From an uncultured Alphaproteobacteria bacterium (lineage in GTDB: Bacteria > Pseudomonadota > Alphaproteobacteria > RF32 > CAG-239): DNA of 64,000 bases. Positions 23,323 through 23,715 of this stretch are shown here, piece after piece. Within the stretch, counting starts at the first letter, position 1, and each line of letters starts with the position of its first letter. The stretch spans positions 5,033-69,032 of the forward strand of contig CALXTV010000005.1 in the NCBI GenBank assembly GCA_944391505.1. The letters are read 5' to 3'. The notes below the pieces were generated by a model that searched no databases, was not told the origin of the DNA, and saw only the letters and a program-made list of their open reading frames with translations. A program made the position numbers and the translations under genes.

Positions 23323-23715
23323 TTATTGGCATTTGTAGAAACCGCCGCAGGAATATTTGCCAATCTCTTTTCCCATTGCCCGGCATTCGGCTGCCGAATA
23401 ACGATAGGTATCCGGGCAGCAGTTGGCAAACAGGCTTCCGTCATACGGGCAAGGGTCTGCCGGAAGCATGCCGTCACTGCATCTTTTGTATGTGTAACCT
23501 TCCGTGCGGCAGCGTTGTTCGTTGTTTAGGGTATAATCGTCCGGCTGCGAATTGTATTTGGGATTCAGTTTTTGAAATTTTTCATAGTCAGCGGTGTTTT
23601 CCGTTTCGGTAATGAAACGAACATCGGCGGCAGTATTGGAGGCGGTTAGTATGATAAGCAAGGCAATCAATATCGGCATAGTTGTTTTTTCCTGAAAAAG
23701 TATTTTTTTAAGCAT
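23323..23715 (-). CDS. small secreted cysteine-rich protein, paralog of the N-terminal module of the 4020-6323 protein
   Basis: Signal peptide (MPILIALLIILTASNTAADV, alternative start 23679). The C.EGY....C......DYCPY..S...C.C pattern matches QCKNEGYVLNNC...DYCPYNKSYVSGCKC in the large protein. Confidence 0.6.
   Translation of the reverse strand: MLKKILFQEKTTMPILIALLIILTASNTAADVRFITETENTADYEKFQKLNPKYNSQPDDYTLNNEQRCRTEGYTYKRCSDGMLPADPCPYDGSLFANCCPDTYRYSAAECRAMGKEIGKYSCGGFYKCQ

Follow-up and report, generated by a model that had tools for sequence, protein, structure and literature searches.

The closest described systems are of several kinds. The Legionella adhesin Lcl has a Sec signal, an N-terminal region, a long repetitive stalk of collagen triplets and a C-terminal domain. 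Chlamydia has a small (OmcA) and a large (OmcB) exported Cys-rich protein in one genome. Other disulfide-rich designs are the small eight-Cys knots of the hevein type (CBM18) and the Cys-rich domains of the tumour necrosis factor receptor (TNFR) family, which are elongated modular repeats made of small two-disulfide units. Polymorphic toxins join a conserved N-terminus to variable C-termini. The present analysis concerns a small gene in a 64,000-nucleotide stretch of DNA from an uncultured Alphaproteobacteria bacterium (positions 5,033 to 69,032 of contig CALXTV010000005.1, assembly GCA_944391505.1); this whole stretch is called the window. As judged by sequence comparison, the product of the small gene (the small protein) and the N-terminal head of a 767-residue protein (the large protein) encoded in the same window are true paralogs, and the resemblance is one of homology, not of Cys composition. 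The head family is outside every described family and is missing from all databases searched. Its kind is familiar, namely a secreted, disulfide-rich modular domain heading adhesin-like proteins.

Homology of the small protein and the large protein

A preliminary description of the window had proposed that a 130-residue protein is a paralog of the Cys-rich N-terminal part of the large protein. The open reading frame (ORF) in question is present on the minus strand (23323..23715; 130 residues from the first ATG), and its translation is identical to the one given there. Residue numbers below are those of a 118-residue form whose start is discussed in the last section. The ORF of the large protein opens at TTG 3927, encodes 767 residues from its ATG and contains the stretch quoted in that description, SQCKNEGYVLNNCNSVQSPKDYCPYNKSYVSGCKC, at residues 95-127. 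The parts of both proteins are listed in Table 1. A BLASTP comparison of the two proteins gave one ungapped high-scoring segment pair (39.7 bits, E = 9e-9) with 16 of 41 residues identical. The Smith-Waterman score was 104, while full shuffles of the mature small protein gave 40.8±6.9 (maximum 73) and shuffles with fixed Cys positions gave 42.8±7.1 (maximum 71); none of 2000 shuffles reached 104 in either control. The 45-residue core alone scored 101 against 35±6 for its shuffles. A hidden Markov model (HMM) built from 13 small orthologs matched the ORF of the large protein with E = 2.6e-6, which was the sole match among all six-frame ORFs of the window; by this measure, the window holds two copies of the module only. 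In a profile-profile alignment with hhalign, the small family and 29 non-redundant N-termini of the large family were joined with a probability of 96.9% (E = 1.3e-10). It was concluded that the homology is true because the Cys-fixed shuffles never reach the observed score and because of this profile-profile E-value. The preliminary description had named a score no better than that of shuffled Cys-rich controls as the result that would overturn its proposal; the paralogy was borne out by all four kinds of comparison.

It might be argued that short Cys-rich motifs can align by composition, or that the small ORF is a decaying fragment of the large gene, as frameshifted versions of the small ORF are found in some metagenome assemblies (P0015-P0019). 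This explanation is refuted by the Cys-fixed shuffles, the profile-profile E-value and the ratio of nonsynonymous to synonymous substitutions (dN/dS). The small gene has 14 intact orthologs with a dN/dS of about 0.1 and a conserved synteny, and it has its own flanking hairpins. That the gene is real, the homology true and the family new is next to certain.

The similarity is wider than the CxEGY...CPY stretch and also includes the N-terminal peptide and the C-terminal CGGxYxC half. When the module B half of the small protein was compared with the long protein P0115, it aligned to residues 125-155 (CCDATYKYNPSQC...CGGKYKC) at z = 7.8 relative to Cys-fixed shuffles. The mature small protein as a whole had a score of 135 with P0115, while shuffles gave 48±8.5. 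In the 767-residue protein, the module B half aligned best to the third CGGKY repeat, but weakly (z = 2.8). Single HMM alignments span the profile from about position 16 to about 117 in many long proteins, such as P0183 (103-202), P0234 (139-238) and P0216 (164-261). Therefore, the entire mature small protein is collinear with the heads of the long proteins. By inspection, one and the same element appears as A-[GD]-V-[RTQ]-F-[IL]-x-[DP] in the small proteins and as KTAGVCFLGxGDC, ASVCFITDTxxCSG or AGVHFI in the long ones. This N-terminal motif (N-motif) lies 24-47 residues ahead of module A in nearly all long members. For the 767-residue protein, the link of its N-motif to the small protein comes from family transitivity, as the direct pairwise alignment stops short of it. 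A DDY-x-LD sequence at the end of the linker is common to the small and the 767-residue proteins.

The head family and its proteins

How strongly is the small protein conserved? The N-terminal peptide DVRFITETENTA is invariant across 13 orthologs of 45-81% overall identity; the other family members have A-x-V-[R/C/H/Y]-F-[I/L/V] in its place. In the same 13 orthologs, all eight Cys residues and G61, Y62, P78, Y79, P89, Y92, G112, G113, Y115 and K116 are invariant. In a codon analysis of seven small-gene orthologs, the whole-gene dN/dS was 0.07-0.12 where dS was unsaturated. The proportions of nonsynonymous and synonymous differences (pN/pS) were 0.44/0.70 in the signal peptide, 0.00/0.61 in the N-terminal peptide, 0.24/0.79 in the linker and 0.15/0.81 in the Cys domain. 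The signal peptide is the most variable part of the gene, while the codons of the N-terminal peptide have undergone many synonymous changes and no amino acid change. Since pN is 0.00 against a pS of 0.61 in DVRFITETENTA, selection acts on the protein and not on the DNA. The small gene is under strong purifying selection.

Both the small and the large forms carry what reads as a Sec-type signal peptide. An n-h-c pattern with small residues at -3 and -1 was visible by eye in the N-termini of all family members inspected. In the small family, the signal peptides have an A-x-A-like site at their end and no conserved Cys; since the Cys at +1 that defines a lipobox is missing, the small protein should not be a lipoprotein. 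A prepilin-type leader, a TonB or TolB box and curli N22-type targeting were also considered, and they were rejected on sequence pattern alone.

No Pfam or NCBIfam match was found for the small protein even at E ≤ 1, and the 767-residue protein gave sub-threshold noise only in the same two databases. A PDB sequence search with a 65-sequence profile also gave only noise. An AlphaFold2 prediction with 13 close orthologs had a predicted local distance difference test (pLDDT) score of 64 and was discarded; the model used was made with an alignment of 65 diverse stand-alone members. Its mean pLDDT is 83, with residues 51-118 at 90-95 and the N-terminal peptide and linker at about 60. In the predicted secondary structure, C57 lies in a short helix, residues 71-76 and 84-89 form strands, residues 96-101 form a second helix, and residues 106-111 and 114-117 make up a C-terminal hairpin. 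The model thus fits a folded knot with a flexible N-terminal arm. In a Foldseek search of this model against PDB and BFVD, there was no match with E < 1. The suggestion of a new module family therefore withstood the searches of Pfam, NCBIfam and PDB sequences as well as that of structures.

The top Foldseek matches were chains of the TNFR family. The modules and the TNFR-type domains are alike in being elongated modular disulfide repeats from small two-disulfide units. However, all Foldseek E-values exceed 1 and the template modelling (TM) scores are ≤0.2 (for 4kgq_D and 3alq_S, E is 1.8-5.9 and TM ≤0.18). In Pfam, RANK_CRD_2 appeared by its summed score in one long member (P0183), with no individually significant stretch. 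The resemblance to TNFR domains is one of kind and not a demonstrable homology.

Modules A and B each probably hold two internal disulfides, because there are eight invariant Cys residues, the repeat units with four Cys are self-contained, and the confident model is compact. The expected pairs lie among C57, C67, C77 and C87 in module A and among C88, C99, C111 and C117 in module B. Cys-loss co-variation was uninformative for the disulfide pairs. The long protein P0171 has five tandem copies of module A with a 38-residue period and exactly four Cys in each copy, which in terms of sequence makes module A an independent, self-contained four-Cys unit. It is probable that the small protein is exported and disulfide-bonded, and the DsbA-like oxidase encoded 2 kb away (Table 1) is the machinery expected for disulfide formation, a candidate by its context.

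Is the pairing of a stand-alone and a long form peculiar to this window? A profile search was performed on 1.84 billion representative proteins. It gave 146 clusters at 50% identity with E ≤ 1e-3, of which 30 had E ≤ 1e-10. About half of the 146 clusters are stand-alone proteins of 100-135 residues with the same layout, and the rest are proteins of 170-959 residues with the module near the N-terminus (at about residues 60-260). Thus, the occurrence of the module both alone and at the head of a large protein, first described from the two proteins of the window, holds family-wide. Relatives of the 767-residue protein number more than 515 at 90% clustering. Nearly all of these large relatives have a signal peptide, an HTHT motif, the N-motif, module A, one to three B repeats and 31-residue Cys repeats. 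I therefore define a "motif-A-B head" family by a Sec signal, A-x-V-x-F-[ILV], a linker of 24-47 residues, C-x2-3-G-[YF]-x3-8-C-x5-12-C-P-[YF]-x4-9-C, and then C...C...CGGxYxC. The small protein has all of these elements, and so does the 767-residue protein, with three B repeats. The named sources are all gut metagenome-assembled genomes: Candidatus Scatocola faecigallinarum, "uncultured Alphaproteobacteria bacterium" and "uncultured Azospirillum sp." The cluster members are annotated only as "hypothetical protein [Alphaproteobacteria bacterium]", and nothing on these proteins was found in the literature searched.

Most large members have an H/T-alternating motif that separates the signal peptide from the N-motif. 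It is NTHTNT in the window (4128-4145) and FITYTHTDTP, HTHTYTP or THTSTP in relatives (among the N-termini of P0022-P0139), and the small proteins do not have it. It might be a metal binder or a second sorting element.

In contrast to the heads, the C-terminal ends of the long proteins are diverse. The heads and the tails (the last 180 residues) of 167 full-length long proteins were clustered with BLAST; 166 of the 167 heads fell into one cluster, while the tails formed 22 clusters. The tails include further Cys repeats (98 proteins), a DUF1566/Lcl_C-like type (35), the type of the window (7) and many singletons; the "Lcl_C-like" label of the 35-member cluster is a reading of the tail sequence of one member. 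A Pfam scan of 66 long members found Lcl_C (PF07603) at the C-terminus of five and a pectate-lyase-like adhesive domain in one. No toxin domain was found in these 66 proteins, nor any Pfam match covering the head. The long members thus share with Lcl the order of Sec signal, N-terminal region, long repetitive stalk and C-terminal domain, and five share Lcl_C itself. On the other hand, their stalk consists of disulfide-rich repeats where Lcl has collagen triplets, the motif-A-B head has no counterpart in Lcl, and both proteins of the window lack Lcl_C. The C-terminal domain of the 767-residue protein had no Pfam match and gave only noise in the PDB sequence search.

The preliminary description had called the module "extracellular binding or toxin-like". 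One head cluster against 22 tail clusters is indeed the layout of polymorphic toxins and of modular surface proteins. The small protein could then be a defensin- or bacteriocin-like antimicrobial peptide, being small, secreted and rich in Cys (eight residues), and the large proteins could be polymorphic toxins with the same delivery head. A beta-defensin was also among the top Foldseek matches, none of which was significant (all E > 1). However, neither toxin nor immunity modules were found in head-family proteins, which have Sec signal peptides, many disulfides and core-genome locations, and none of the 66 scanned members has a toxin domain. No secretion system, transporter, immunity-like gene or mobile element is associated with the small or the large gene at the loci examined. 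The small gene belongs to the core genome, is syntenic and present in one copy, and evolves under strong purifying selection; it is neither accessory nor diversifying. A tblastn search against plasmids gave no match. The same search against phages gave one, MT838190.1 (locus L017), a 5.6-kb faecal contig filed in INPHARED as "Bacteriophage sp." and unverified. It encodes a 115-residue small-family member, with a 6-phosphofructokinase (PFK) gene about 1.1 kb downstream and no phage genes. As it carries PFK, it is most likely a misfiled alphaproteobacterial fragment. A toxin role is therefore very improbable and that part of the earlier wording is disfavoured, while binding or anchoring remains plausible from the adhesin-type partner domains.

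A possible docking role of the head

The best overall explanation, to which I assign a probability of roughly 0.6, is that the exported head of motif, linker, A and B is a common docking or anchoring unit and that the small protein is a head-only paralog. The 118-residue pre-protein would be exported by Sec to give a mature form of about 100 residues. This form would consist of the conserved N-terminal peptide DVRFITETENTA, a flexible acidic linker and a compact 62-residue domain of A and B, locked by probably four disulfides made by DsbA in the periplasm. In the large Cys-rich repeat proteins, the same head is the conserved N-terminal unit, followed by the stalk repeats and then by interchangeable C-terminal domains. 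As a common docking, anchoring or export-recognition part, the head may fix these proteins to a shared envelope partner, and the variable tails may supply the outward-facing specificity. The head-only small protein may occupy or organise the same docking site. The N-terminal peptide, flexible yet invariant, would be the best candidate for a partner-binding strand. The docking role is proposed because the logic of Lcl-type adhesins and of modular surface proteins, a conserved head with variable tails, was applied here; taken by itself, this role is put forward only tentatively.

Some points weigh against this explanation. That the conserved end is the anchor and the variable end the function is argued by analogy, and the polarity may be the opposite, with the head as a distal binding tip. 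No conserved neighbour fit for a receptor or an exporter was found around the loci of small or large members examined, and the window itself encodes no secretion system. Among the tails, the largest cluster (98 of 167) consists of more Cys-rich repeats, and many members have no distinct C-terminal domain.

Could the head be the ligand-binding end? It may be a disulfide-stabilised, Tyr-rich, lectin-like domain whose ligand is host mucin, a dietary glycan or chitin, and the small protein would be a lectin secreted in free form. The conserved residues other than Cys are mostly aromatic or Gly (EGY, CPY, YxY, CGGxY), and the eight Cys with a CC doublet recall by description the carbohydrate-binding knots of the hevein and peritrophin types. 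The gut habitat would suit such a function, and the adhesin-type domains on long members point to an adhesion role for the family. The likeness to hevein comprises a small eight-Cys domain, the CC doublet, and conserved Gly and aromatic residues. However, the domain of the window has 62 residues against about 43, it consists of two separable four-Cys units, and its Cys spacing (x9, x9, x9, x0, x10, x11, x5) differs from the hevein pattern C-x8-C-x4-CC-x5-C-x6-C-x5-C-x3-C. There was no Pfam match to Chitin_bind_1 (PF00187), CBM14 or any other carbohydrate-binding module and no structural match in PDB, the Foldseek search included. Glycan binding also leaves the strict invariance of the flexible N-terminal peptide unexplained, and the conservation of the head across proteins that already bear diverse binding tails points to a shared housekeeping role. 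I regard the lectin reading as unlikely.

Another reading is that these proteins strengthen the envelope. By analogy with OmcA and OmcB, intermolecular disulfides in the periplasm or the outer membrane would link the small and the large Cys-rich proteins to one another. As in Chlamydia, a small and a large exported Cys-rich protein are encoded in one genome, and they may have an envelope or adhesion role. The small gene is also present as a single core copy with housekeeping synteny, and a DsbA-like oxidase is encoded close by. However, the small and large proteins of the window are homologous to each other, 19 kb separates their genes, and the small protein has no lipobox and is not a lipoprotein. 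No Pfam match to Chlam_OMP3 or Chlam_OMP6 was found in the two window proteins or in the 66 long members. The even number of Cys per module (4 + 4) and the confident compact fold suggest intramolecular pairing, and the window has normal peptidoglycan-related genes (BacA, M23 peptidase, YceG). Cross-linking of this kind seems improbable.

The docking explanation has a bolder extension, which is rather unlikely. The N-terminal peptide A-x-V-x-F-I/L together with the A/B knot may be a new surface sorting or anchoring signal of gut Alphaproteobacteria, with the head-only protein as a base, a cap or a regulator of the docking site. If this is true, hundreds of modular surface proteins with interchangeable tails would share a mechanism of surface display that is new for diderm bacteria. 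In any case, an uncatalogued domain family is at hand, apparently a major class among the exported proteins of uncultured gut Alphaproteobacteria (Candidatus Scatocola and its allies); these organisms recur in human and animal gut metagenomes. With a conserved head and swappable tails, some of which are of the adhesin type, its members are likely mediators of gut surface interactions. The head-only core gene and the invariant peptide offer a tractable handle of about 100 residues on the partner of the head and on the placement or release of these proteins. Should the proteins prove to be plain structural stalks, a useful new Pfam-type family would remain, but no more than that.

Gene boundaries and genomic surroundings

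The 14 intact orthologs of the small protein have 116-120 residues, and all start at the equivalent of M13 of the 130-residue ORF. For this reason, the true start is most likely ATG 23679 and the coding sequence 23326..23679, giving a 118-residue protein. AGGA lies 11 nucleotides upstream of this ATG, while ATG 23715 has no ribosome-binding site. The 12-codon upstream extension is probably untranslated. The hairpin between the small gene and rpsU is likely a bidirectional terminator; it was missed by the terminator scanner because its T-run has four T only. As hairpins lie on both flanks, the small gene looks monocistronic, with its own transcription unit. The metagenome variants P0015-P0019 encode frameshifted or deleted small proteins, in which the signal peptide and the DVRFITETENTA motif are kept and are followed by an alternative frame. 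The C-terminal end of P0017 is the product of an overlapping 86-residue ORF of the window (23217-23477, minus strand). The probable cause of these variants is faulty assembly or sequencing of the A-rich stretch that follows the motif, with real variation as the alternative.

Table 1. Features of the small gene, the large gene and the DsbA-like gene in the window
Feature	Position	Strand	Evidence or remark
Small gene, 118-residue precursor	23323..23679 (coding sequence 23326-23679, stop codon 23323-23325)	minus	ORF; starts of orthologs; dN/dS 0.07-0.12
Putative Sec-type signal peptide, residues 1-18, MPILIALLIILTASNTAA then DV (TAA|DV)	23626..23679	minus	hydrophobic core, small residues at -3/-1; read from the sequence
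N-terminal peptide of the mature protein, DVRFITETENTA, residues 19-30	23590..23625	minus	invariant in 13 orthologs
Acidic low-complexity linker, residues 31-56, ending DDYxLN/D before the first Cys	23512..23589	minus	alignments; pLDDT about 60
Module A, residues 57-87, C-x2-EGY-x4-C-x9-CPY-x7-C, four Cys	23419..23511	minus	BLASTP, shuffles, hhalign; pLDDT 90-95
Module B, residues 88-118, C-PDTYRY-x4-C-x11-CGGFYKC, four Cys	23326..23418	minus	match to P0115; pLDDT about 94
In-frame upstream extension of 12 codons, MLKKILFQEKTT	23680..23715	minus	only in the window and the 99%-identical P0001; missing from all other orthologs
GC-rich hairpin, GGACTGCA-N8-TGCAGTCC	23294..23317	.	between the small gene and convergent rpsU; read from the sequence
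Terminator-like hairpin and T-run	23746..23775	minus	13-bp stem then T8; after the upstream DUF465 gene; called by terminator scan
Large paralog, 767 residues	4020..6323	plus	signal peptide, NTHTNT, N-motif, module A, three B repeats, about six 31-residue Cys repeats, Cys-poor C-terminal domain
N-motif of the large protein, VGVCFIGFGDC, residues 64-74	4209..4241	plus	aligned with KTAGVCFLGVGDC of the family and with ASVCFITDTxxC / AGVRFITD
Module A of the large protein, residues 95-125	4302..4394	plus	BLASTP, hhalign
Three B-type repeats, C-x-C...C...C[G/E]GKY..C-x-C, residues 125-212	4392..4655	plus	
About six 31-residue Cys-rich stalk repeats, NCRNRTAVSTPYGCQTYWSDCxSKCQxAYxD, residues 223-402	4686..5225	plus	
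Cys-poor C-terminal domain, residues 403-767	5226..6320	plus	tail cluster with 7 members; one of at least 22 unrelated tail types
Periplasmic DsbA/ScsC-like thiol oxidase	20676..21398	plus	Pfam DSBA 2.5e-21; 2 kb from the small gene; syntenic in orthologous loci

The small gene lies in a housekeeping block with the order MutY, DUF465, small gene, convergent rpsU, a 70-residue ORF, PFK, DsbA-like, PhoU_div and PHO4. This block is kept in loci whose small orthologs are 54-68% identical. A 39%-identical homolog retains DUF465, the small gene, convergent rpsU, the 70-residue ORF and PFK. The pair of DUF465 and the small gene persists at 34% identity, and the arrangement of small gene, rpsU and PFK at 36%. 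One 35%-identical relative is found elsewhere, between FtsK and CysS. The DUF465 gene upstream of the small gene in the window encodes 60 residues (23799-23981). The uncharacterised 70-residue ORF (22720-22932, plus strand) is a small core gene with no Pfam or NCBIfam match; it adjoins rpsU in all orthologous loci in which this flank could be inspected (L001/L002, L004-L006, L012, L016). The large gene sits between RlmH and UvrB. A large member of another locus, P0090 (664 residues; L018, 5452-7449 and 8001-9995), is directly downstream of a 665-residue protein that has no Pfam match and is not matched by the head HMM, and is 3.7 kb from a 1159-residue autotransporter.

Other parts of the window were noted in passing. 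A low-GC region at 26900-29750 (GC content 0.38 over 28-30 kb) holds ORFs of 425 residues (26918-28195) and 495 residues (28225-29712) with no Pfam match; together with a 2-hydroxyacid dehydrogenase gene (25638-26630), they lie between MutY and BacA. Since about 1 kb separates BacA from MutY in the syntenic loci L001 and L004, this region looks like an insertion or island specific to the genome of the window. No Pfam match was obtained for three further ORFs, of 1025 residues (14797-17874, plus strand), 245 residues with a signal-peptide-like N-terminus (18014-18751, plus strand) and 869 residues (8341-10950, minus strand). In orthologous loci, ORFs similar in size to the first two occupy the same positions, as far as position and size were compared. 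Where the GC content of the window is lowest (0.36 over 54-56 kb), an ankyrin-repeat protein is encoded (54244-55212, minus strand; Pfam Ank, E = 3e-21); its repeats are of a eukaryote-like kind, and it could be a host-interaction factor. A flagellar block at 10969-13744 (minus strand), with FliM, FliL, DUF6468 and an MgtE_N-domain protein, suggests that the organism is motile.

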